Numbered from the stretch's first letter, positions 1-17,600 are shown. The stretch is DNA of 64,000 nt from an uncultured cyanobacterium (GCA_963744145.1 CAVUSO010000001.1:480001-544000); one strand, 5' to 3'. Made by a program: numbers and translations. The notes: generated by a model not told the origin, from the letters alone.

Positions 1-602
1 CGACTATCTGTTTCTGGATAGGAATTTTCTAAGCTTTCTGAATGAGGTGGTCTACCAGGTAGTTCTCGAATAGCCCGTTCTAGGAGGGATAACTCTTGGA
101 TAACCTCTGAGTCACTGTTGTCGAGAGGTTTCTTTTTATCTAGGTTTTTCCAAGCGGTTTCGCTACCCGTAGTGAAAGCAACCACCATTTCTGGTAACAA
201 ACTGTGGCTAAATTGAACTGGTTGTTCCTGAAGTATTTCATTATCCGTCTGAATCTCCCAGGCATTTACATCTCCTAAGAGGGCAAATTGTTCAACATCA
301 GAATCCTCTGACTCTTCTGATTGTGGAATGTTCGATAACTTTACTCTGCGTTTTTGGTTGCCCTCTCCTAACTCATATTCTAGTTCAAAACCATAATCGA
401 CAGGATTGTAACTCTCTAAAGTTCGTATTATATCAAACAGTGCTATTAGTACCGTTGACTTTCCAGTACCGTTGACACCTACCAGAAAATCAAGACTGTA
501 GGAAGAAGCATGAGTAAGGATATGTTCTGTTTTAGGACTGAAGTTAATCTCTAAGTCGCGCAGAACTCGATACTTTTCTAGGTAGAGCCTCTGTAACTTC
601 AT
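1..602 (-). CDS. ABC/AAA-family ATPase (RM-associated, SMC/OLD-like N-terminus), partial, runs off left edge
   Basis: Manual translation from ATG at 602: MKLQRLYLEKYRVLRDLEINF...SLDFLVGVNGTGKSTVL (Walker A GxNGxGKS). GGAG RBS upstream; frame open to base 1; missing from ORF track. Confidence 0.85.
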   Translation of the reverse strand, partial: MKLQRLYLEKYRVLRDLEINFSPKTEHILTHASSYSLDFLVGVNGTGKSTVLIALFDIIRTLESYNPVDYGFELEYELGEGNQKRRVKLSNIPQSEESEDSDVEQFALLGDVNAWEIQTDNEILQEQPVQFSHSLLPEMVVAFTTGSETAWKNLDKKKPLDNSDSEVIQELSLLERAIRELPGRPPHSESLENSYPETDS

Positions 603-2627
603 CTGCTCTTCTCCCCTAAATTTGAACCACCTGAGTCGAACTGCCATAGAATCTCGCTCCGTGACGCGACGGTAGAAGAAGATAGGATCGTTTGTCTTTG
701 GATCTGCAATAGTCACAGGTACAATGACTCCCATACGTTCTAAGAGGTCAATGGTCTGGCGAGTAGCATCTGCTACATCCTCAGTATTAGCAGCATTCAA
801 GTCCTCCAAGGTGAAGTGTGCTGCTGTTTCATAATTATCTCTCTCATTGTCAGTAATTTGCTCAGTTTTTTCACGTACTTTATTCCAGATTTTGGTTTGT
901 TCTGGATTCAGCTTTTCTAGTAATTTGAATTCCGGTTCAAAAATTGGAGAAGGTAGTTTCTGAGTTGCAACAGGAGGTAATTCCAGACGACCAAAGAGGC
1001 TATCAATCCGTTGAGCTAGTAGCTGCTGGTTGCGGTGGATTCTGGCTAGGATCGTGGAAGGAGATTGAAGAGAGCTTGATTCGATCTGAGTTCCGACATA
1101 GCGTTCTGGACGTAAATCATAGGCTTGATTTTGGATGGTAGTGCTTGGAACAGCTACCCCTAGCAATCTGGGCTTGTCTATCCCTATGGTTTGGTGATGA
1201 TTGGGAAAAGCGATCGCCACTGCACTAACTGAACATGAAAGTAATGGTATTACTGGATTAATTTCTTGTTCTGATCCTTCTTTTGGTAATTGTTCTGAAT
1301 CAATATCTTGTTCTGTCTCCTCTTCTGCTGATTGGCCCTCATTAGTAGAGGTTTGCTCAGTCTCTAGGGGAATCTGGACAGTAATTCGTTTCTCTGAGGA
1401 AGTTGCTGCCAATTCCACCATTAAGAAACGAGACCTTTGACCAGTCTGAGGGTCTGGAAGCATAAATTTAATGTTTGTTAGGCTACTAGCTATGCCCTGA
1501 CAAATTATTCCCATTTGACTATTGCTGGGGCTTGTAATCCATTTGACCCCAATTTGCGGATTGGTGTCGTCATTAGGAAATCGCTCATCAAATTCAGAGT
1601 TATACTTCGCCCATACCTGTTCTACAAAAGGCAGGTCGCTATGTAGAGAAGGATCTTGTGTCAGATCGCGACCGCGACCAGTTGGATAGCCATCCTGTTC
1701 AACCTGGAAGAACCAACTTAGATGTCCTTCAACAGGGTTACTTTTGCTAAACAGCAGTAGATTGGTTTGAAGAGGGCTGTAGGGTTGAAAGGCATCTCTG
1801 GGCAGAGCGATTACTGCTTCCAGTTTATTTCCATCTACCAACTGAGTTCGCAAATCCTGATCAGCCTTACTGTTACTAAATAGCAACCCTGATGGCACTA
1901 GAAGCGCCGCTTTTCCATCTGGGGCTAGTTTTTGCAATGCCAAGGCGGTTAGTACCGTTTCGCTGCGACTACTGATTTTCTTTTTAAAGATTCTTGCTGC
2001 CAGTTCTATATCAATTTTTTCGCCAAAGGGAAGATTCATCAGAATCCGTTCAAAAGTTTTGAAAGCAAAAGCTTCTTCTCCCAAAACTTTGAGAGCGTTA
2101 CCATTCTCAATTTGAGCAGAGGGAATTTTATGAAGCCGGAGATTTGCTGTTGCTAACCACGCCCACTCAGGGGAAATGTCGATCCCAAAAGTCTGCCCAG
2201 GCTGATTGGGATCTGTAGCTTTACGATACACAAGCAAACCACCACTGCCACAAGTAAAGTCTGCCATGCTATGGATTGATTCAACTTGGGCAAGTTCTAG
2301 CATGAATTTGGCAATATACCGGGGAGTGGGATAGCGTCCACCGGGAAGCATAGTAGGGAGACGAAAAAGTATGTGGCGATCGAACAGCACAGCTAACCCA
2401 CCTACTTGATTAGCTGCTATCCTCAACTGCTCCTTGATAATTTTAATATTTTCTTTGTTTAGGTAGTCAGGAGGTAATCTAGGCATTGCTTCATCTTTTG
2501 GTAGTTCCAGTCTGCTTTCTGCCAAAAGAAGTCTAGCGATATGCTCAATAATAGTTAAGTCATCCGCAATCCCAGCACTGCGGAAAGTTGACCAAACTTG
2601 ATTAAGCCAATCGCGAACTGTTTCCAT
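599..2627 (-). CDS. Second HsdM-like N6-DNA-methylase-family protein with degenerate catalytic motif and C-terminal extension (as sequenced, fused in frame to the ATPase)
   Basis: Manual translation from ATG 2627: GRYPTPRYIAKFM, DFTCGSGGLL (motif I), RILMNLPFG (motif IV, NLPF), LVPSGLLF, VIALPRDAFQPYS, YDLRPERYV. No stop before the ATPase; removing one base near 650 gives ...ERDLWQFDSGGSNLGEKSR* with an ATGA overlap at 599-602. Confidence 0.8.
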
Positions 2628-2630
2628 GCC

Positions 2631-3929
2631 TTACAATTCTCCTCGAAAAGCCCGTTCTAAAATAGATTGCTCAAGCATATCAAGCGATTTAGCATCTTGT
2701 TCCAACATTTTTAGCACTGCTTCAGCAGCATACTGAATATTGTCAAGATATGCAACGGCTAGGCGTTGTTGCTGTATTGGTGGTTTCGGTACTGGAATTT
2801 CTACAACATTCTTAGGATATATGTGTGTTTGCCCCCGCTTATCTGCAAAGGCAATTCCTGTTCTCCTAGAAAGAATCTCTTGATGACCTTGTTCAGACCA
2901 AAGATAATAGTAGAGCCATTTGCCTAATAATTCTTCCTCATCTTTAGAGCGCAAAATCATTATTTGTGTATCAACTGTCCAGAAATCTTCACACTCTTTC
3001 ACATAACTAACACGCCCAAGAGTTCCTTCGGCAATGTTTGCCATCAGAACATCTCCAGGTTTTAAATATCTATCTTGAGGCAGTTTTTGCACTTGTTCTT
3101 CTTTCATATAGGAAGGATTATTGAATCGCAAATAGTGAGGATAAACGTGCTTGGTTTTGAAAACTCTAACGTCGGAATCACCTTCACCACTTGCCCGACC
3201 ATTAAAGGCTGTAGCAACTTCTGATAGAGGTACAATATCAATTACTGATTCAAGTTTTGTAAATACTTCATTTAGTGAGACAGTTAATAATCGCTCCGTA
3301 TCTCGTCGCACTTCGTCAAGCATACTGCGAGACTCTCTAATTTCAGTTAGTAGTGCTTCTATACGTGCAACAATTTGGTTTTGAACATTAAGAGAATAAG
3401 TAGTTTCCTTATAATGAGGAATAGGTACAGAAAGTTCGAGGAACTCTTTAACTTTCAGATTGCGTAATCCAGAAGTTGTAGCCTGTGCATATAAGTATAC
3501 GCTCCGTGCAGAGGATGAATGCAGATAATAAAGGAGATATTGGGGAATAACTGTTCCTTTAGAACGCAGCCTCAGCATAAAATTTGAAAACAAGTAGGTT
3601 CGACCATCATTAGGATCATCAAACAAGCAAGGCCACCCTACAAGCCTTGTGCTACCACTAGATTTATTAACTAAAATATCTCCATTTTTTAGTGAATATT
3701 TATCAATTATTTTTACATCTACAACTCTCATTTCTGCACTTTCAGACTTTAAAACGTAACCAGAGATTTCTGTAGATTTAATGGTAGGAAAAGCAATTGT
3801 ATAATTGTCCGCAGGTGTGCCCCAGATACCTGTCTGATGGCTAACTAAATCCGAGAGCTTAACCCATTTCCAATCTTTAGGCAAGTTCCATAGTTTTCTG
3901 ACCGATATTTCTGTGGCCATATTTACCAT
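2631..3929 (-). CDS. hsdS: Type I restriction-modification specificity subunit
   Basis: LPKDWKWVKL start, two TRDs with Q-x-x-IV linker helices, C-terminal LEQSILERAFRGEL. Confidence 0.93.
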   Translation of the reverse strand: MVNMATEISVRKLWNLPKDWKWVKLSDLVSHQTGIWGTPADNYTIAFPTIKSTEISGYVLKSESAEMRVVDVKIIDKYSLKNGDILVNKSSGSTRLVGWPCLFDDPNDGRTYLFSNFMLRLRSKGTVIPQYLLYYLHSSSARSVYLYAQATTSGLRNLKVKEFLELSVPIPHYKETTYSLNVQNQIVARIEALLTEIRESRSMLDEVRRDTERLLTVSLNEVFTKLESVIDIVPLSEVATAFNGRASGEGDSDVRVFKTKHVYPHYLRFNNPSYMKEEQVQKLPQDRYLKPGDVLMANIAEGTLGRVSYVKECEDFWTVDTQIMILRSKDEEELLGKWLYYYLWSEQGHQEILSRRTGIAFADKRGQTHIYPKNVVEIPVPKPPIQQQRLAVAYLDNIQYAAEAVLKMLEQDAKSLDMLEQSILERAFRGEL

Positions 3930-5452
3930 TAAGTCTCCTCCATATTACTAACAAGCTTATGAAGACGCTCTACAATAATTTGAAATTTTTGCTGATTTTC
4001 AAGAATTCTAGCAGTTAATTCCGAGGGATGTGGTAATTTTTCCTCTTCAGGACGATGAGGATTTCTAGCTGATAAATCATACCCCCGCTCGACCAGTATC
4101 TTTTCATCTACAAACCAACTTGTTTCAGTAAAATCTTTGTGAGATACTTTTCCTTGACAATATTTACGCCACTGCTGTACCACTTCCTTTGCTTGGTTAA
4201 AATGCTCATCAGAAATAGAATTTCCCTTACTAAATTTCTTCAAATTTTCAGGCAAAGGCATCTCGTAATAGAGAACTTCTTTGGTAGCACCTGATCGCTC
4301 AAAAAATAACAATGCAGTCTTCACATCCGAATAGGGAGCAAACGCACCAGGAGGCAGACTAACTACTAAAAATAGATTAAAATCATTGAGCAACATTTGC
4401 TTAACTGTAGCAAATGCACCACCTCGAAATAATGTTCCTTCCGGCACTACCATCCCACAACGAGCTTTATTTGATGGTTTCAGCTTTTTGATAATATGTT
4501 CAACCGCTAATAATTCTGTAGCGTTACTCTTAACAGGAAAATTCTGTTTAATTTGGGCGTTTTCTGTTCCACCAAAAGGAGGATTAGTTAGTACGATATC
4601 GAATCGCTCAGATACATTACGGACATTTTCTTCTAAGGTATTCTTCCGCCGAATATTTGGCACTAAAACCCCATGTAGTACCATATTCATTGTACCTAAG
4701 AGAGCAGGTAAAGCCTTTTTCTCCTGCCCAACAAAGGTTTTACGTTGAAGAATATGGCGGTCTTTAATAGTTTTCTCTTGCTTCTGCATCTGCTCATAAG
4801 CTTCCACCAAAAACCCACAGGAACCGCAGAAGGGGTCATAAACCGTTTCGCCAATTTGCGGGTCAATTACCTCCACTATAAATCGAATTATTGGACGAGG
4901 AGTATAAAACTCACCTGCCATTTTATTTTCATTTCCCAATCGCTTGAGCAAGTCTTCATAGACATGGGAAACTGTATGAATATCATCAGGATTTTTAAAA
5001 TCGATGCTATCAACAATCTCCAACACATCCTTGAGGTTATAAGGAGAATCACAAACAACTACATTCCGATCATTAAATATACCAGCAATCACTTCTCGTT
5101 CTGGGGAACCAGAGAGATTAGCAAGGTAGGGAATCAATTCCCCACGAATAAACCTCATCAGAGGCTCACCATCCCACTTTGGCGTAGCGCGACGACCATT
5201 TTCACCTACTTTTTTATCTAATGCTAAAAGTATCCAATTCGACCAAGAATAGTCACGATCAATTACTGGATTATGGCTTCCTCCTGCTAATTCAGCTTCC
5301 AATTCAAAGATTTTTTCTTGCTCGTCAAGAAACTTTAAAAACAACAACCAAGAGATATGTTCGACATACTCCATTATGCCGCCACAGTTATTGTCTCGAC
5401 GCAAAATTTCGCAAGCTCTCCAGATGTCGTTCGTTAATTGTTCTCGACTCAT
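3929..5452 (-). CDS. hsdM: Type I restriction-modification methyltransferase subunit
   Basis: GEFYTPR, YDPFCGSCGFL, LTNPPFGG motifs; HsdM N-terminus (YVEHISWLLFLKFLD). Confidence 0.95.
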   Translation of the reverse strand: MSREQLTNDIWRACEILRRDNNCGGIMEYVEHISWLLFLKFLDEQEKIFELEAELAGGSHNPVIDRDYSWSNWILLALDKKVGENGRRATPKWDGEPLMRFIRGELIPYLANLSGSPEREVIAGIFNDRNVVVCDSPYNLKDVLEIVDSIDFKNPDDIHTVSHVYEDLLKRLGNENKMAGEFYTPRPIIRFIVEVIDPQIGETVYDPFCGSCGFLVEAYEQMQKQEKTIKDRHILQRKTFVGQEKKALPALLGTMNMVLHGVLVPNIRRKNTLEENVRNVSERFDIVLTNPPFGGTENAQIKQNFPVKSNATELLAVEHIIKKLKPSNKARCGMVVPEGTLFRGGAFATVKQMLLNDFNLFLVVSLPPGAFAPYSDVKTALLFFERSGATKEVLYYEMPLPENLKKFSKGNSISDEHFNQAKEVVQQWRKYCQGKVSHKDFTETSWFVDEKILVERGYDLSARNPHRPEEEKLPHPSELTARILENQQKFQIIVERLHKLVSNMEET

Positions 5453-5606
5453 GCAGTTTTCTCTCGGTATAGGCGCTGCTGCACCTCATTCAATGTTTGA
5501 CGCAAATTTTTGCTATTACCAAATCTTTCGCAAATTTTTGCTATTACCAAATCTTTCGCAAATTTTTGCTATTACCAAATCTTTGTACTACCCCCTGTGC
5601 TTGTCC
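5449..5606 (-). pseudogene. hsdR: C-terminal remnant of hsdR (EcoEI-R-like tail)
   Basis: Collapsing the triplicated 28-mer gives GQAQGVVQRFGNSKNLRQTLNEVQQRLYREKTA*, whose TGA overlaps the hsdM ATG (ATGA). It resembles the FG..L...L..LQ..LY end of EcoEI-type HsdR; no upstream ORF remains. Confidence 0.7.
5501..5584. repeat. Perfect tandem repeat, 3 x 28 bp (CGCAAATTTTTGCTATTACCAAATCTTT)
   Basis: Directly visible; no spacers. Confidence 0.95.
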
Positions 5607-8654: not shown

Positions 8655-11600
8655 ATGCTAATACTACCAAATAACCAAGCAATTACATTTATATTAGAAA
8701 TCCTGGAGCTAAGAGCGCAAACTCAGTCTGAGCAGCGATGCTATACTTTTCTGAGCAATGGGGAAACTGAGTCAGGGAGTCTGACCTATAGAGAATTAGT
8801 GAGACAAGCTAGAGCGATCGCCTCCCAGCTCCAATCTGACCGAGGAGAACGAGCATTACTATTATACCATTCTGAATTAGAGTTTATCACAGCGTTTTTT
8901 GGCTGTTTATATGCGGGAGTGGTGGCAGTACCAGTATATCCTCCCAGACGTAATCAGAAATTGTCTCGTTTACTGTCAATCATCAATAATGCCCAAGCCA
9001 AGTTAGCATTGACGACAACAGCAATATTGCCCGACTTGGAGCAGAAGTCAGAAGCACAAACAGAATTAGCTCAGTTAAGGTTAATCGCTACAGATGCGAT
9101 CGCTGCTAATAGTGAAGAATTTGTATTGCCATCAGTCACACCAGAAACTTTGGCGTTTTTGCAATACACTTCGGGTTCTACGGGAACACCCAAAGGAGTG
9201 ATGGTAACACATGGCAATATCATTCATAATCAGCAGTTAATTCAGCAAGCTTTTGGTCATAGTGAGAAGACCATATTTGCGGGTTGGTTGCCATTGTTTC
9301 ATGATATGGGACTAATTGGTAATGTATTGCAACCAATGTATCTGGGAATTCCCTGTATTTTGATGCCCCCAGTAGCATTTCTGCAAAAGCCGATTCGTTG
9401 GTTGCAGATGATTTCTAAATATCAAGCGACTACCAGTGGTGGACCGAATTTCGCTTATGATTTATGTGTAAAAAAAATTCCAGACGAACAATTAGGGGAA
9501 CTAGACTTGAGGAGTTGGGATGTAGCTTTTAATGGAGCTGAACCAGTCCGAGCAGAAACCCTGGAGCAATTTAGTCAAAAATTTGCCGAATGTGGTTTTA
9601 ATTATAATGCTTTTTATCCTTGTTATGGCATGGCGGAGACAACGCTATTAACAACAGGTGGGGAGAAGACTCAAAGTCCAGTAGTTCAAAGAGTTAAGGC
9701 TGAGGAACTAGAGCAAAATTTGGTAGTAGATAGTGAGAGCGAAACAGCAGAAAGTCGTACATTTATAGGATGTGGTCATCCCTACCAAGACACCACAGTA
9801 GTAATAGTTAACCCGGAGTTATTAACTCCCTGTGCAGAAAGACAAGTCGGAGAAATTTGGGTATCAGGTGGGAGTGTAGCGGCGGGATATTGGCAGAGTC
9901 CTGAAGCAACAGCAGAAACATTTCAAGCAGCTCTAAGGGATAGCGGTGCAGGTCCTTTTCTTCGCACAGGAGACTTAGGGTTTTTCCTGAATGGAGAGTT
10001 GTTTGTGACAGGGAGAAGAAAAGATTTAATTATTATTAAAGGCAGAAATCATTATCCCCAAGACCTAGAAGTAACAGTAGAAAAAAGTCATCCTGCCCTC
10101 CGAGAGAATTGTAGTGCAGCATTTTCAGTAGAAAGGCAAGGAGAGGAAAAGCTGATAGTTGCTTGTGAGGTAGAAAGAACTGAACTCAGGAAACTGAAGC
10201 TAGATGAGATTGTCAGAGAAATCCAAATTGCAGTAGCCACAGAACATGAGTTAGAAGTTGATGGAGTTGTCTTGTTGAAGACCGGAAGTATTCCGAAAAC
10301 TTCGAGTGGAAAAATTCAACGTCGAGCTGGTCAATTAGGATTTTTAGAGAATAGTTTAGAGAGCGTAGGCAGGTGGGAAAAACCTCTCTCAAATGAACGG
10401 GAAATATATGTAGAACCTCTCTCAAATGAACGGGAAATATATGTAGCACCAAGGACTGGCAATGAAGAACTCATTGCTAACATTTTCGCCCAAGTCCTAG
10501 GGATAGAAGCAGTAGGAATTCATGACAACTTCTTTGGCTTGGGAGGACATTCTCTCTTAGCCACCCAATTAATTTCCCGACTCCAACTTACCTTTGGTGT
10601 AGAAATCCCCCTAAGAACAATCTTTGCATCTCCAACAGTAACTCAATTAGAGCAAACATTAACCCAGTTATGTAAGACGGGAAGTGGATTAAGTCTACCT
10701 CCAATTCAACCCAGAAAAGAGGGAGAAGAATTACCCCTATCATGGGCACAAGAACGACTGTGGTTCCTGAATCAACTAGAAGGGGCAAGTGCGACTTATA
10801 ACCTAGCAGGAGCGTTTCGGATCACTGGGGACTTAGATATTAATGCACTGCAACAAGCATTAGCCGAGATAGTCCGCTTCGTCACGAGGTACTACGCACA
10901 AGCTTCGCTACAGTAAATGGTCAACCAGTTCAGGTAATTGACTCAGCAGCCACCATCAACATGAATGTGGTGGATTTACCACAAATACCAGATCCAGAAC
11001 GCGAACAGCATTTACAGCAGTTAATACAACAAGAAGCAATTACCCCCTTTGACTTAGAAATAGCACCTTTAATCCGAGCCAGTTTGTTCCAGTTATCAGC
11101 CCGAGAATATGTGTTATTAATCACCATGCACCACATTGTTTCGGATGGTTGGTCAATCGGAGTATTCAGCTCGGAACTATCGGTTTTATATCAAGCTTTT
11201 AGTAGAGGAGAAGTATCACCCTTACCAGCATTAGCGATTCAGTATGCCGACTTTACCTGGTGGCAAAGAGAATGGTTGAGTGGTCGAAAGTTGGAAAATC
11301 AACTTAATTATTGGAACCAGCAACTTATGGGTGCTAATCCTATACTGGAATTACCTACAGATTATCTACGCCCTCCAGTTCAGACATTTTCTGGTGCTAA
11401 CCAATCTTTGCTGCTCAATCAGGAGCTAATAACAGCGATCAAAACCTTGTCTTATCAGCAAGGAGTGACCTTATTTATGATCTTATTAGCGGCATTCCAG
11501 GTATTACTGTATCGTTATAGTGGGCAAGAAGATATTATTGTTGGTTTTCCCGTTGCTGGTCGTAATCGGGCTGAGGTGGAGAACATGATTGGATTTTTCA

Positions 11601-14600
11601 TTAATACGCTTGTCCTGAGAACTAAATTAGTCGGTAATCCCAGTTTTTTAGAATTATTAAAACAAGTTTACCAAGCGGCATTAGATGCTTATCTTTATCA
11701 AGATATGCCTTTTGAGAAAATAGTGCAATCACTCAAACTCAAACCAGACTTGAGTCGTAACCCCCTATTTCAAGTGTGTTTCAATATGCTCAATTTAGAA
11801 GATATAAAACTGGAATTACCAAGTATGGCTGTGGCAACAATAAATATGCCAAAGACTAATACCAAATTTGACATCGATCTATATCTTCAAGAGCAAAATG
11901 ATGGAGTTAAACTAGATTTAACGTATAATTCTGATCTATTTAAACCAGAGCGAATGAAAGAAATGCTCCATCAATTTCAGCATTTGCTTGAGCAAATAGT
12001 TGTTAATCCTGAAGTTAAAATTGCTGAAATTTCTTTAGTCACTCAGAGAGCAGAATTATTGTTGCCAAATCCACGACAGCTATTGTCTAAAAACTTGACG
12101 CTACCTGGTCATATCGGTTTTTGGCAACAAGCTCAAAAGCTGCCAGATCAAATAGCGATAGTTGATGCACAAGTCAGATGGACTTACGCTGAACTAGAAG
12201 AACGTAGTAACTTACTGGCTGATTATTTGCTCGTAAATCAAATAAAATCCCAAGATATTGTAGCTATCTATGGTCATCGCAGTGCTGGCTTAGTTTGGGC
12301 AATACTAGGTATTCTCAAAGCTGGTGCAGCTTTTGTGATCCTCGATCCAGCTTATCCCTCATTCCGTTTAATCGATTGTCTAGAAGTTGCTCAACCTCGC
12401 GCTTGGTTGCAAATCAGTATAGCCGGAGCAATTACAGATTCTTTGCAAGATTATCTAGAAACTTTAGCTTTAAAGTGTAATTTACAACTTCCTCAAGGCT
12501 CAATCGCTGAAATTCGCCACTTATTTTCGGATTATGTACCTAGCAATCCAGAAATAGTAGTGGAGCCAGACCAATTAGCCTACATCGCTTTTACTTCTGG
12601 TTCGAGCGGAAAACCTAAAGGAATTCTCGGTACTCACAGACCTCTATCCCATTTTATCCAATGGCATTGTCAGACCTTTGGACTGAAGGAGTCAGACCGA
12701 TTTAGTATGCTCTCTGGACTATCTCACGATCCCTTACTACGGGATATATTCACACCATTATCGCTAGGTGCAACTTTATGTATTCCTCAGTCATTAGATA
12801 TTGAGACACCTGAGCAACTAGCTAATTGGCTCAAAGAACAGCAAATAACTATTACTCATCTAACGCCAGCGCTCGCCCAATTATTATTAATAGGAAATCC
12901 GATAGAGCCAACCCTATACTTACGTTATATATTTTTTGGTGGGGATGTTTTAAAAATGCCGGATGTCCTAAACATCAAGGATTTTGCGCCTCATGCCACC
13001 TGTATTAATTTCTATGGAGCTACAGAAACGCCACAAGTAATGAGTTATTTTATCATCCCCGACTCAAGTAATCAGGTAGATTTGAATAGGAAAAATATAC
13101 CTCTGGGTCGAGGGATTGAAAATGTGCAACTTTTAATACTAAATAATCAACAAAATTTAGCTGGAATTGGAGAATTAGGAGAAATTTATGTACGTACCCC
13201 TTATTTAAGTAAGGGGTATATTGGCAGTAATGAACTTAACGAAGAGAGATTCATCATCAATCCAATCACTGAAATACCAGATGACAAACTGTACAAAACG
13301 GGTGACCTTGCCCGTTACTTAGCAGATGGAAACATCGAATACTTTGGTCGCATAGATAACCAAGTGAAGATTCGTGGTTTCCGCATCGAATTAGGCGAAA
13401 TCGAAGCAGTCCTCAACACCCATGCTCAAATCCAACAAGCTGTGGTAATGCCGCGAGAAGATGTTCCTGGAGACAAACGCTTGGTTGCATATATAGTCAC
13501 CTCAGATGAATCACTGACCAGCCATCAATTGCGGGAATTTCTCAAGCAAAAGCTCCCAGAATACATGGTGCCCAGTGCTTGGGTGATGTTAGACAAGTTA
13601 CCGTTAACACCCAACGGGAAAATCGATCGCCAAGCATTACCAGCACCTGATGGGGAAATAACTAGAACAGATCAGTATGTAGCCCCAAGAACACCAAGGG
13701 AAGAAATCATTGCTAATATTTTCGCTCAAGTTCTCAATGTGCAGAATGTAGGAATTGATCACAATTTCTTTGAATTAGGCGGACATTCTCTCTTAGCGAC
13801 CCAATTAGTTTCTCGACTCCGACGGGCTTTTGGGGTCGAAATTCCCTTGCGAGCCATCTTTGCAGCGCCGACAGTAGTTGAATTAAACCAAACCTTAACC
13901 CAGTTAAGTAATCAGGGAAGTGGATTAGGTCTGCCACCCATTCAACCAAGAGAAGAGCGAGAAGAATTACCCCTATCATGGGCGCAAGAAGGACTGTGGT
14001 TCCTGAATCAACTCGAAGGTGCAAGTGCTACATATAATATGCCAGGAGCAGTTCGCATCACTGGTGATTTAGATATTAATGTACTGCAACAAGCATTAGC
14101 CGAGATCGTCCGCCGTCACGAGGTACTACGCACAAGCTTCGCCACAGTAAATGGTCAACCAGTTCAGGTAATTGACTCAGCAGCGACCATCAACATCAAG
14201 GTGGTGGATTTACCACAACTACCAGATGCAGAAGGTGAACAGCATTTACAGCAGTTAATACAACAAGAAGCACATACCCCCTTTGACTTAGAAATAGCAC
14301 CTTTAATCCGCTCTAGTTTGTTAAGGTTATCAGCAACAGAATATGTGTTATTGCTGACCATGTATCATATTGTTTCAGATGGTTGGTCAATTGGTATATT
14401 CAGTTCAGAACTATCGTCTTTATATCAAGCTTTTAGTCGAGGAGAAGCATCACCCTTACCAGCATTAGCGATTCAGTATGCCGACTTTACAGTTTGGCAA
14501 AGAGAATGGTTAAGTGGGGAAATATTAGCAACTCAACTTAATTACTGGCGATCGCAATTAAAAGATGCTCCATCACTATTACAATTACCAACAGATCGCC

Positions 14601-17600
14601 CTCGTCCCAGTGTCCAAACTTACCGAGGCAGTACCCAAACTTTTAGCTTAAATCCTGATTTAACCAAGCAGTTACAAACTCGATCGCGAGCATCGGGGAC
14701 GACCTTATTTATGACCCTGGTGGCAACATTTGCGACATTATTACATCGCTACAGTGGTGAATCAGATATTTTAATCGGTACTCCCATTGCGAATCGTAAT
14801 CGGGAAGAAATTGAAGGGCTGATTGGCTTTTTTGTGAATACATTAGTGTTGAGAACCCAGGTAGAAAATAATCCGAGTTTTGAGGAGCTACTGACACAAG
14901 TAAGGGAAACCACACTCCAAGCTTATCAGCATCAGGATGTACCTTTTGAACAAGTAGTAGAAGCCTTACAACCAGAACGTTCTTTAAGTCATTCACCGCT
15001 GTTCCAGGTGACGTTTGTCTTCCAAAATACACCCATGAGGGACTTAGAATTACCGGGTGTAGTCGTGGCTCAGTTATCGACAGAAAGCACAATTGCCAAG
15101 TTTGATTTAACCTTGTCAATGACGGAAAGTGAGTCGGGATTAGTCGGAGAATGGGAGTACAATACAGATTTATTTGATGACACAACTATTGAGCGGATGG
15201 CGACTCATTTTCAGAATTTATTGTTAGCGATCGCCGAAAATCCGCACCAAAGGGTGGGTGAAATCCCTCTGTTGAGTGCCGCCGAACGACATCAGTTGTT
15301 AGTCGAGTGGAATGATACCGCCACCGAATATCCCAGGGATAAATGTATTCATCAGTTGTTTGAGGAACAAGTAGAAAAAACGCCTTTAGCCGTAGCAGTA
15401 GTATTTGAGAACCAGCAGTTAACCTATCAAGAATTAAATCAAAAATCTAACCAATTGGCACATTACCTCCAAGGTTTAGGAGTAGGACTAGAAGTGTTGG
15501 TGGGGATTTGTGTAGAGCGATCGCCCTCAATGGTGGTAGGACTATTGGGGATTCTCAAAGCGGGTGGAGCTTATGTGCCTCTTGACCCCAATTATCCTCA
15601 AGAAAGGCTGAGTTATATGTTAGCAGATTCCGGTGTAGGAGTGTTGTTAACTCAACAGTCTTTATTGGCATCTTTACCATCACATAGCGCACAGATAGTT
15701 GGTTTAGATACGGATTGGGAAGCGATCGCTCAAGCGAGTCAGGAGAATCTTGATGCTGGGGTAGGTGCAGAGAATTTAGCTTATGTAATCTACACATCAG
15801 GTTCGACGGGACTACCCAAGGGAGTAGCGATTGAACATCAAAGTCCGGTAGCTTTAGGTTATTGGGCTAGACAAACATTTACGACGGCACAGCTGAGTGG
15901 GGTTTTGGCGTCAACTTCTATTTGTTTTGATTTATCGGTGTTTGAGTTATTTGTCACCCTATTTATGGGCGGGAAAATAATTCTGGTCCGATCATGCTCT
16001 GGATCTAATCAATCTGAAAGCAGCAGCAGAAATAACTTTAATTAATACTGTGCCTTCGGCGATCGCTGAATTGTTAAGAATCGAGGGCATACCAGCACAA
16101 GTCCAAACTGTAAATTTGGCGGGGGAATCGCTGCCAAATCAAATAGTAGAGCAGTTGTACAAACAGGAAAATATTGAGAGAGTATATAATTTGTATGGGC
16201 CATCAGAAGATACCACCTACTCGACCTTTGCTTTGATCGAAAAGGGCACAAACACCGCACCTACCATTGGTCGCCCCATCAGCAATAGCCAAATTTATAT
16301 CCTCGACCAATATCTGCAACCAGTACCGATCGATGTAGCTGGAGAAATCTACTTAGGTGGTGATGGTCTGGCTCGAGGCTACTTGAATCGCCCAGAACTA
16401 ACCACGGAAAAATTTATTCCTCATCCCTTTAGTAATCAACCAAATGCTCGTCTCTATAAAACCGGAGACTTAGCCCGTTATCTCCCAGATGGCAATATTG
16501 AGTATATAGGACGCATCGATCATCAGGTGAAGATTCGTGGTTTCCGGATCGAGTTAGGGGAAATTGAAGCAGTCCTCAATGCTCATCCTCAAATCCAGCA
16601 AGCTCTAGTAATGCCGCGAGAAGAGGTTCCTGGTAATAAACGCTTAGTTGCATATATAGTCAGCGCGGATGAATCACTGACTAGCCATCAATTGCGGGAA
16701 TTTCTCCAGCAAAAGCTCCCAGAATACATGGTGCCTAGTGCTTGGGTGATGTTAGACCAATTCCCGTTAACAGCCAACGGGAAAATCGATCGCCAAGCAC
16801 TACCAGCACCCGATGGGGAAATCACTAGAGCAGATGAGTATGTAGCACCAAGAACGCCAAGTGAAGAAATCATCGCCAACATCTTCGCTCAAGTTCTAGG
16901 GGTGCAAAAGGTCGGAATTCATGATAACTTCTTTGAATTAGGCGGACATTCTCTCTTAGCGACCCAATTAGTTTCTCGGCTCCGACGAGCTTTTGGCGTC
17001 GAAATTCCCCTGCGAGCCATCTTTGCAGCACCAACAGTAGTTGAATTAAACCAAACCTTAACCCAGTTAAGTCATCAGGGCAGTCAAGTCAGTCTGCCAC
17101 CCATTCAACCCAGAAAAGAGGGAGAAGAATTACTCCTATCATGGGCGCAAGAACGACTGTGGTTTCTGAATCAATTAGAAGGGGCAAGTGCTACTTACAA
17201 TATCCCAGGAGCATTTCGCTTGACTGGGGATTTAGATATTAAAGCACTACAACAAGCATTAGCAGAGATCGTCCGCCGCCATGAAGTCCTACGCACGAGC
17301 TTCACTACAGTAAATGGTCAACCAGTTCAGGTAATTGACTCAATTGCCACCATCAACATCAAGGTGGTGGATTTACCACAATTACCTGATGCAGAAGGTG
17401 AACAGCATTTACAGCAGTTAGTACAACAAGAAGCACATACCCCCTTTGACTTAGAAATAGCACCCTTAATCCGCTCTAGTTTGTTAAGGTTATCAGCGAC
17501 AGAATATGTGTTATTAATCACTATGCACCACATTGTTTCAGATGGGTGGTCAATTGGTGTATTCAGTTCAGAACTATCGGCTTTATATCAAGCTTTTAGT

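Follow-up and report, generated by a model that had tools for sequence, protein, structure and literature searches.

Why would a type I restriction-modification (RM) operon carry, behind its specificity gene, a second methylase-like gene and an ATP-binding cassette (ABC) ATPase? We addressed this question for a stretch of 64,000 nucleotides (nt) from an uncultured cyanobacterium (GCA_963744145.1 CAVUSO010000001.1:480001-544000), which we call the window; coordinates are positions in the window unless a contig or locus is named, and the operon genes lie on its minus strand. Downstream of hsdM (M1) and hsdS, the operon holds an HsdM-derived gene, here M2, followed by a gene for an ATPase that resembles PtuA of the Septu defence system and, past the left window edge, a gene for a putative HNH nuclease. 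We lean slightly toward reading M2 as an HsdM-derived adaptor or sensor that would tie this Septu-type ATPase/HNH effector to the type I recognition machinery. Structure and complex predictions and profile searches contribute the HsdM fold of M2, its winged-helix tail, the contact of tail and ATPase, the likeness of the ATPase to PtuA and the intact HNH motifs, while comparison of loci contributes linkage, operon packing, survival after hsdR loss and a relaxed motif IV.

A conserved six-gene cassette links type I RM genes to an ATPase/HNH pair

The operon described in the earlier note is real, and its genes are tightly packed. The hsdM gene (3929..5452, minus strand) encodes 507 amino acids (aa) with matches to N6_Mtase (7.5e-60) and HsdM_N (2e-12), the motif NPPF and a PADLOC match to MTase_I (PDLC03021, 3.7e-136), and hsdS (2631..3929, minus strand) encodes 432 aa with two target-recognition domains, two Methylase_S stretches and a PADLOC match to Specificity_I (4.3e-36). 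The ATG of M2 lies at 2627, 3 nt past the hsdS stop, and opens an HsdM-like frame (N6_Mtase 1.3e-29, residues 96-322). M2 (599..2627, minus strand) has 675 aa when an extra base at 650 is left out; as deposited, it is fused in-frame to the ATPase, a matter to which we return below. The ATPase starts with an ATG at 602-600 that overlaps the natural M2 stop as ATGA, and the 5' part of the gene occupies 1..602 (minus strand), the whole gene encoding 523 aa (L002:14034-15602, minus strand; end at G000:C1:479034, outside the window). The start of the HNH gene, beyond the left window edge, overlaps the ATPase stop as ATGA as well, with the start set at the conserved Met16.

We compared loci from two scans. 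The first was seeded with M2 and run on genome contigs, one genome per species, and it yielded 25 loci, 20 of them with an ATPase hit; the second was seeded with the ATPase and run on metagenome contigs, and it yielded 80 loci, a set that carries no bias towards M2. Stop-to-stop frames in the loci were searched with the window's own proteins plus an HsdR. The denominators given are loci with enough flank, which for M2 means at least 600 nt upstream, and the counts overstate independence, with many loci being kin and the same contig being filed twice (L011/L028, L079/L084).

Across these loci, the cassette has the order hsdR-hsdM-hsdS-M2-ATPase-HNH on a single strand. M2 lies directly upstream of the ATPase in 61/62 ATPase-seeded loci (the miss is L094) and in 20/20 M2-seeded loci, a near-absolute linkage that bears out the earlier expectation of a consistently linked ATPase. 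HNH follows the ATPase in 66/67 (the miss is L095) and 18/18 loci of the two sets, respectively, and the RM genes are found at somewhat lower rates, with HsdS in 39/41 and 17/19, HsdM in 26/29 and 17/19, and HsdR in 20/25 and 14/17. In 13 of 17 loci, M2 ends and the ATPase begins within a shared ATGA; three others have a 29-nt gap and one a 195-nt gap. The HsdR proteins of relatives carry ResIII, HSDR_N and EcoEI_R_C domains. Carriers include Cyanobacteria, Chloroflexota (among them the Herpetosiphon aurantiacus plasmid pHAU02, L016), a Binatia metagenome-assembled genome (MAG) and a Bacillota MAG.

Some loci carry additional genes or depart from this layout. An AbiEi/AbiEii pair lies between hsdR and hsdM in 8 loci of one sub-clade (L022, L023, L082, L085, L087, L088, L089 and L092; e.g. 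L087:839-2539). A gene with HARE-HTH, Mrr_cat and RAMA domains follows HNH by 7-23 nt in 9 loci (e.g. L042:2712-3734 and L055:10841-11878), and a McrC-like gene (Pfam McrBC family) together with an AAA_5 ATPase gene follows HNH in 7 loci (e.g. L087:10682-14187). Since Mrr- and McrBC-type genes follow HNH, the cassette sits in defence islands. At L103:3-11116, the place expected for hsdM and hsdR is taken by a gene for a 1511-aa helicase with an MZB (MrfA Zn-binding) domain; next come an HsdS-like gene, an M2 with motif IV as AAPF, and intact ATPase and HNH genes. At L012:9864-11813, a single frame has a 305-bit match to M2 and a 322-bit match to HNH, and no ATPase lies between the two, which resembles a deletion derivative of the cassette.

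M2 combines an HsdM-like body with a beta-rich insertion and a putative winged-helix tail

The M2 frame contains the features that had been listed for it: the S-adenosylmethionine (SAM)-binding motif I, DFTCGSGG (residues 123-130; 2238..2261, minus strand), motif IV as NLPF (residues 198-201; 2025..2036, minus strand), for which the family consensus is NPPF, the acidic stretch ETEQTSTNEGQSAEEETEQDIDSE, and the C-terminal extension LNPEQTKIW...TIDLLERMGVI...YRRV, after which comes the Walker A motif of the ATPase, GVNGTGKST. An AlphaFold model of M2 (m549435d7ca31), built from 30 sequences, has a predicted local distance difference test (pLDDT) score of 76.8 and a predicted template modelling (pTM) score of 0.69. 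Compared with HsdM chains in VIA, the model aligns to 2okc_A with Z 27.1 and a root-mean-square deviation (rmsd) of 3.3 over 352 aligned residues, and to 5ybb_A with Z 27.0 and rmsd 3.7 over 365 aligned residues (model 1..516, N-terminal helices included); Foldseek matches to HsdM chains reach E values of about 1e-16. The best match of the M2 profile (A1) among solved structures is the type I M subunit 3ufb (1.3e-27), and M2 shares 27% identity over 262 residues with the neighbouring HsdM. These results agree with the description of the second M as an HsdM paralog with extra domains. The N-terminus, which had been called shortened, has no Pfam HsdM_N match, but in the model its residues 1-95 can still be superposed on the N-terminal helices of HsdM chains (5ybb_A).

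A beta-rich insertion at about residues 345-495 (1143..1593, minus strand) interrupts the HsdM fold and is the least conserved part of M2, with large further inserts in Chloroflexota. Foldseek with a sub-model of M2 340-659 gave no match at E <= 0.001, a wide VIA search with the same region gave matches only to the tail and none to the insertion among the matches listed, and the Atlas feature search with the insertion reached at most 0.87, under its own bar of 0.9; the missing fold match is no evidence of a new fold. Within the insertion, the acidic loop 424-455 is disordered (pLDDT < 50) and present in some lineages only, and it is therefore probably a linker. On the same two grounds, we rejected the loop as a conserved feature.

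Beyond the insertion, a long helix at residues 523-547 (987..1061, minus strand) is a candidate HsdS-binding element. It weakly resembles the C-terminal helix of HsdM, with 35% identity over 37 residues to residues 469-505 of the operon's own HsdM (BLASTP, E 0.016), and structural ranges with 7vs4_A and 2ar0_B extend to M2 551-555 at rmsd 8.7-9.7.

The C-terminal domain of M2 (residues 562-659; 651..944, minus strand) is the predicted docking site for the ATPase. All 50 VIA matches listed cover the tail, that is, the last ~100 residues, and nearly all of them are named winged-helix. The top match is Fur (2xig_A, Z 7.6, rmsd 3.2, 80 aligned), and the tail also matches kleisin C-terminal winged helices that sit on the ATPase heads of structural maintenance of chromosomes (SMC) proteins, namely 4i99_C (Z 6.9, rmsd 3.5, 70 aligned) and 1w1w_E (Z 6.3, rmsd 3.6, 66 aligned). 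Since these Z values fall in the tool's middling range, we assign the modelled tail to the winged-helix fold class as likely and claim no specific kinship. A profile of the tail found 178 clusters among 1.84 billion representatives; among the 150 matches listed, the tail is always C-terminal and none of the proteins is longer than 887 aa.

The ATPase and the HNH protein resemble a Septu effector pair

The ATPase matches Pfam AAA_15 and AAA_21, and PtuA is its closest counterpart both in PADLOC (6.6e-36, in a library without curated cut-off) and among solved structures (Septu PtuA 8ee4, 2.5e-10), where the retron Ec78/Ec83 PtuA proteins are also among the best. Its matches to AriA are weaker (PADLOC 4.4e-14, PDB 4.9e-5). 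Against NCBIfam, the PtuA model NF041760 scores 64.5 bits, far under its 500-bit cut-off, and TIGR04435 scores 105.6 bits against a cut-off of 300 (2.7e-30, residues 676-1159 of the fused frame). Walker A (453..479, minus strand), the SDGE signature, the Walker B motif DEPExH and the H-loop are invariant across an alignment of 18 sequences. The earlier note had spoken of an ABC/SMC-like ATPase with a parallel in PrrC/RloC; the protein is an ABC ATPase, but its best matches make it PtuA-like, as in Septu, rather than SMC-like or PrrC/RloC-like. Pfam, NCBIfam and PADLOC scans of the ATPase, in which no PrrC model was searched by name, returned no anticodon-nuclease domain.

The effector suspected past the left window edge is present. 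It is an HNH protein of ~430 aa, in which the Cys4-HNH set CxxCD...DH..P...HPYNL.P.CxxCN, conserved in 63 sequences, is intact. In PADLOC, it matches PDC-M01B (4.8e-15) better than PtuB (4.6e-7), and it has no Pfam match and no solved chain at E <= 1.

Elsewhere in this genome (G000:C1:5136893-5140977), a true TIGR04435 ATPase (477.8 bits) lacks an M2, and 1.8 kb downstream of it lies an HNH-like gene of 220 aa; the two resemble a separate, plain Septu-like pair, and a plus-strand open reading frame (ORF) lies between them.

The M2 tail is predicted to dock on the ATPase

We predicted the complex of the ATPase with M2 residues 500-659, using an 18-row alignment for each partner, alongside 3 controls. 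The median score of the complex is 0.75, and the best control reaches 0.20. As a rough guide only, since our own alignments were used, this mark is reached by 116/157 solved complexes and by 2/215 mismatched pairs. The runs agree in at least 76% of their contacts, and the partner's pLDDT is at least 63. Confident contacts fall at M2 566-577 and 624-636 and at ATPase 244-290 and 329-357, and the contact sites include the family-invariant residues Q577, L628, E630 and G633 of M2 and L248, L283, N331, F333 and W357 of the ATPase. Together, these predictions support docking of the M2 tail on the ATPase, which is what had been proposed earlier for a winged-helix-like tail.

The contact patch on the ATPase precedes the signature motif and lies outside the C-terminal domain. 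In Septu, PtuB sits on the C-terminal domain of PtuA (PMC12065111). Because the predicted M2 patch lies outside the domain that holds the PtuB site, M2 and the HNH protein could bind the ATPase at the same time.

Motif IV is relaxed in M2 and lost in some loci

The earlier note had called M2 degenerate, and as a family trait this does not hold. NPPF dominates both in 30 database relatives (NPPF 24, NSPF 3, SPPF 1, NPSF 1 and NLPF 1, the last being this strain) and in 69 distinct M2 ORFs from the loci (NPPF 59), two sets that overlap in origin, and NLPF is therefore peculiar to this strain. The other 10 locus ORFs read NPPW (1), SPPF (1), NPAF (2), NPSF (2), APSF (1), AAPF (1), APPF (1) and DIPM (1), and motif I is kept in 68/69. 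Judged by these motifs, M2 as a family is not a dead methylase.

Homologs thus largely retain NPPF, which goes some way toward the outcome that the earlier note had named as refuting its reading, but motif IV is looser in M2 than in the cognate HsdM, which has NPPF in 44/44 cases at the same loci (Fisher p = 0.006 against the 59/69 of M2, a value overstated by kinship). In three loci, the catalytic Asn is lost (DIPM in L090, AAPF in L103 and APPF in L104), with motif I and the ATPase motifs retained; the HNH motifs are intact in L090 and L103, and the contig of L104 stops before HNH. Since loci with a dead motif and an intact nuclease would be self-toxic if M2 were protective, at least one lineage seems able to do without M2 catalysis.

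M2, the ATPase and HNH evolve as one unit that outlasts hsdR

For 20 complete non-redundant loci, we calculated the mean pairwise identity of each protein and Spearman correlations of the pairwise identities. The mean identity is 0.60 for HsdR, 0.59 for HsdM, 0.35 for M2, 0.40 for the ATPase, 0.28 for HNH and 0.27 for HsdS, and for HsdS a low identity is expected from the shuffling of recognition domains. Within modules, the correlations are 0.75 for R-M, 0.55 for M2-ATPase, 0.55 for M2-HNH and 0.65 for ATPase-HNH, and across modules, they are 0.27-0.47. Since the identities of M2, the ATPase and HNH are lower and the correlations within modules exceed those across them, these three genes form a unit that evolves fast and is joined to a slowly evolving R-M core.

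Of hsdR, this genome retains no more than a remnant of the last 31 codons (5452..5544, minus strand), which overlaps the hsdM start as ATGA and was recognized by tblastn with the HsdR of L009 (residues 876-906, 61% identity, E 2.9e-6). No full HsdR was found beside hsdM and hsdS; four other HsdR-like genes in the genome each lie beside another hsdM, the nearest ~335 kb away. Likewise, L003 and L011 have only 3' remnants of hsdR, with different end points, and in all three cases, M, S, M2, ATPase and HNH are whole despite the loss (here, M2 with base 650 omitted). Since 34/42 related loci whose flank is long enough have hsdR directly upstream and a remnant of it persists in this genome, we rejected an HsdR-less design. 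The best explanation, from comparison of the loci, is a decayed copy of the six-gene cassette in which hsdR was deleted and M2 carries NLPF. A 28-nt tandem repeat (3.0 copies, 100% matches, 5501..5584) overlaps the hsdR remnant upstream of hsdM, and it may mark a deletion scar or be a regulatory element.

The cassette resembles several known systems and differs from each

Septu is alike in having an ABC ATPase (Walker A, Walker B, signature and H-loop) and, downstream, an HNH gene that overlaps the ATPase gene, and PtuA is the best PADLOC and structure match. The Septu form in type I-A retrons, where PtuAB is combined with a reverse transcriptase and a multicopy single-stranded DNA (msDNA) sensor, is alike in joining the pair to a separate upstream sensor gene. 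Unlike in Septu, the upstream partner here is HsdM-derived with a putative winged-helix tail, the trio lies inside a type I operon, and the HNH protein of ~430 aa has unassigned N- and C-terminal regions and is closer to PDC-M01B than to PtuB. The pair does not have the stand-alone two-gene layout of Septu, with M2 upstream in all of the 62 ATPase-seeded loci but one.

With type I RM systems, the locus shares a canonical hsdM and hsdS and an M2 that has the modelled HsdM fold, the N-terminal helices and a likely C-terminal helix; it is unlike them in having three extra conserved genes 3' of hsdS and, in this genome, an hsdR cut to 31 codons. PacII-type M1M2S enzymes, which combine N6-methyladenine (m6A) and N4-methylcytosine (m4C) activities and are also treated in PMC9613975, are alike in having two methylase genes with one S (7vru_B, Z 26.3, rmsd 3.4, 356 aligned). 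As described in PMC5100572, the PacII M2 has NPPY, lies 5' of S in the order M1-M2-S-R, is highly similar to M1 and has about 500 aa, and the passages on it mention no ATPase or HNH. In contrast, M2 here has 675 aa and two extra domains, carries NPPF or variants and lies 3' of S. We rejected membership in the PacII type on the motif (NLPF/NPPF, not NPPY), the identity of 27% over 262 residues to M1 and the position 3' of S.

PrrC with EcoprrI, together with PARIS, offers the parallel of an ABC-ATPase effector tied genetically to a type I system, possibly with a back-up logic. They differ from the cassette in that PrrC has its own anticodon nuclease domain and lies between hsd genes, PARIS has a Toprim nuclease and is untied to hsd genes, and neither has a methylase-like adaptor. 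Membership in PrrC is unlikely, the nuclease here being a separate HNH protein, and membership in PARIS was rejected on the AriA matches, which rank below PtuA, and on the partner, which is HNH and not Toprim. Over the full length of the ATPase, no NCBIfam model matches better than TIGR04435, "restriction system-associated AAA family ATPase"; membership was rejected on the score of 105.6 bits, under the cut-off of 300 and compared with 477.8 bits for the true member elsewhere in the genome. In the open full-text literature, we found no mention of TIGR04435 or of "restriction system-associated AAA"; PDC-M01 came up there in three papers. MADS was rejected as well, with MAD2 at 33 and 78 bits against 720, MAD5 at 48 against 400 and MAD3 at 13 against 420.

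Embedded defence genes and ABC-ATPase guardians are already in print (10.1101/2024.01.29.577857; PMC12707154; PMC8565338). For a methylase-like/PtuA-like/HNH trio in type I operons, we found no description in the open full-text literature, a scope that leaves out subscription journals, preprint supplements and REBASE notes. The component kinds are already known, and what appears to be new here is a type I RM system and a Septu-like effector joined by a putative methylase-derived adaptor.

A candidate mechanism and its alternatives

M2 stems from HsdM; it retains the SAM pocket, usually NPPF and an HsdM-like C-terminal helix, and it has acquired a variable beta insertion and a predicted winged-helix end. 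In the adaptor reading, its HsdM-like body and long helix would sit in or beside the HsdM/HsdS recognition complex, its predicted winged-helix tail would hold the PtuA-like ATPase, and the ATPase would, by analogy with Septu, control the PtuB-like Cys4-HNH nuclease. The type I system would gain a second nuclease arm that is independent of HsdR and shares its recognition machinery, triggered either by unmodified target DNA or by a block on the type I complex. The persistence of the module after hsdR loss and the retained NPPF lean toward unmodified HsdS sites as the trigger, and fast evolution and motif-dead M2 proteins lean toward a blocked complex, as in a guardian system.

A more general proposal is possible, and we hold it only tentatively. 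PtuA/PtuB-type effectors may be plug-in modules, and the cassette would then add to stand-alone Septu and the retron reverse transcriptase-msDNA a sensor of a third kind: an HsdM-derived sensor, in some lineages without its catalytic motif, that would sit on HsdS and reach the effector through a kleisin-like contact of winged helix and ABC head. One S would aim both an HsdR arm and a PtuAB-like arm, and the second would take over if hsdR is lost.

Several observations weigh against M2 as an adaptor. Every step of the mechanism comes from computation; the complex score is the model's own confidence, and the predicted pair may have passed by its likeness to a solved winged-helix/ABC-head complex. 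The likeness of the M2 helix to HsdM is weak (E 0.016 in a single comparison, rmsd 8.7-9.7), and the Spearman correlation of 0.08 between M2 and HsdS fits no contact, although it also fits a subunit indifferent to the recognition domains. With NPPF present in 85% of M2 proteins, an active methylase may be all that M2 is. DNA and tRNA are both candidates for the nuclease substrate, and the trigger is likewise two-way. Two loci also fit the adaptor poorly: L094 (L094:7995-11040) has the ATPase and HNH, and it alone among the ATPase-seeded loci with long upstream DNA gave no M2, HsdS or HsdM match ahead of the pair, and L103 has the helicase-MZB gene where hsdM and hsdR are expected.

The alternative that survives best, which we consider rather unlikely, is a sub-case of the adaptor with a specific trigger, and it is also how the earlier note had read the operon. 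M2 would be an HsdM look-alike bait held with HsdS, and an anti-restriction protein that blocks the type I complex, such as an Ocr/ArdA-like DNA mimic or an Stp-like peptide, would make M2 change state and free the PtuA-like/HNH effector, leading to abortive infection. There is precedent in PrrC, which is embedded in EcoprrI, and in PARIS, which senses Ocr (PMC12707154; 10.1101/2024.01.29.577857). The much faster evolution of M2-ATPase-HNH than of R/M (0.28-0.40 versus 0.59-0.60) is what an arms race with inhibitors would produce, dead variants of motif IV stand beside intact effectors, and the ATPase has its weaker AriA matches. On the other hand, the module is intact where the guarded hsdR is deleted, and a bait would not need the NPPF that most M2 proteins keep.

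We consider it improbable that the genes are mere neighbours, with M2 an ordinary active m6A methylase and the ATPase/HNH pair an ordinary Septu that travels with the operon. M2 would then be either an extra partner on HsdS, as in PacII-type M1M2S, or a stand-alone enzyme with the beta insertion as its own recognition domain, which would suit an insertion that is the most variable part of M2. The near-universal motif I and the prevalence of NPPF are what an active methylase would show, two-methylase type I enzymes exist (PMC5100572), and defence systems are often embedded in one another (10.1101/2024.01.29.577857). However, the gene order is fixed in 61/62 ATPase-seeded loci, with ATGA overlaps, while true facultative passengers occur in some loci only (AbiEi/AbiEii in 8, Mrr in 9 and McrBC in 7). 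The tail is confined to its 178 clusters and, among the 150 matches listed, to the C-terminus, and the complex prediction favours a contact of tail and ATPase. PacII-type M2 proteins differ in motif, gene order and similarity to M1, as set out above, and were M2 a protecting methylase, loci that combine a dead motif with an intact nuclease should be toxic to their own host.

One extra base fuses M2 to the ATPase in the deposited sequence

As deposited, the window has a single frame of 1198 codons for M2 and the ATPase, which ends 966 nt past the left edge. There is no in-frame stop at 599-601, the stretch 599..2627 has 2029 nt and is not divisible by 3, and the 675-codon reading of M2 requires one base to be skipped near 650. 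At 648..650, the coding strand has TT in place of T, which joins M2 to the ATPase frame. A database protein of 675 aa (P0006) has 100% identity to the window frame over the shared part and ends in ...TERDLWQFDSGGSNLGEKSR, an ending that is the window's +1 frame from 650 on and a C-terminus common to relatives. The second M of ~675 codons that had been reported therefore stands in its start, its features and its database reading, but the frame in the window lacks the stop.

Contigs from 4/4 public runs, aligned to window 200-1100, lack one base at 650, with one contig per run over this position and a depth below 5 in three of the four. The contig of one run contains 97% of the sampled words of the stretch and shows no other difference. 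That run is possibly the source sample and therefore does not count as independent; the remaining three stem from other studies. M2 and the ATPase are fused in 0/17 related loci, and 0/33 database hits to the fused protein span both halves. Because the run contigs lack the base and neither the loci nor the database hits join the two proteins, we conclude from these sequences that in their natural form the two genes are separate, encoding M2 (675 aa) and an ATPase of 523 aa, and that the ATG of the latter shares an ATGA with the M2 stop. The deposited fusion most likely stems from a one-base error of assembly, or else from a mutation that arose very recently.

We rejected a natural 1198-aa fusion on these grounds, together with the P0006 reading and the lengths of the tail-bearing proteins listed. 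That a one-base insertion made a single-chain adaptor-ATPase in this strain in particular is very improbable: the deposited sequence reads so and the frame stays open through the 19 codons from the shift to the ATPase start, but the base is missing from all four run contigs (shallow as three of them are), no related locus or database hit bridges the halves, and no tail protein exceeds 887 aa among the 150 listed.

Other features of the region

Large plus-strand ORFs of 753 and 1694 aa lie at 8655-16045, and their translations resemble the adenylation and condensation modules of nonribosomal peptide synthetases; they are apparently unrelated to the operon. Some 4 kb beyond the left window edge, a 30-nt sequence is perfectly repeated in tandem (3.0 copies, L002:10754-10844), and next to it is a 209-aa ORF (L002:10840-11469) that has no Pfam hit and resembles a methylase only faintly (PADLOC mad2, 9.5e-4). 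Contigs from one RNA run (X2) cover parts of the stretch, which does not amount to evidence of transcription.

Implications

In current annotation, M2 is named "HsdM family methyltransferase" or "N-6 DNA methylase", and its partner genes are not linked to it. For the way in which Septu-type effectors sense infection, M2 would offer a defined, testable sensor with a predicted interface of invariant residues, for which the loci without hsdR and the loci with a dead M2 motif IV provide natural variants for comparison. If M2 is indeed an adaptor, the cassette would be a case in which a classical restriction enzyme is wired physically to an ABC-ATPase nuclease through a duplicated methylase subunit.

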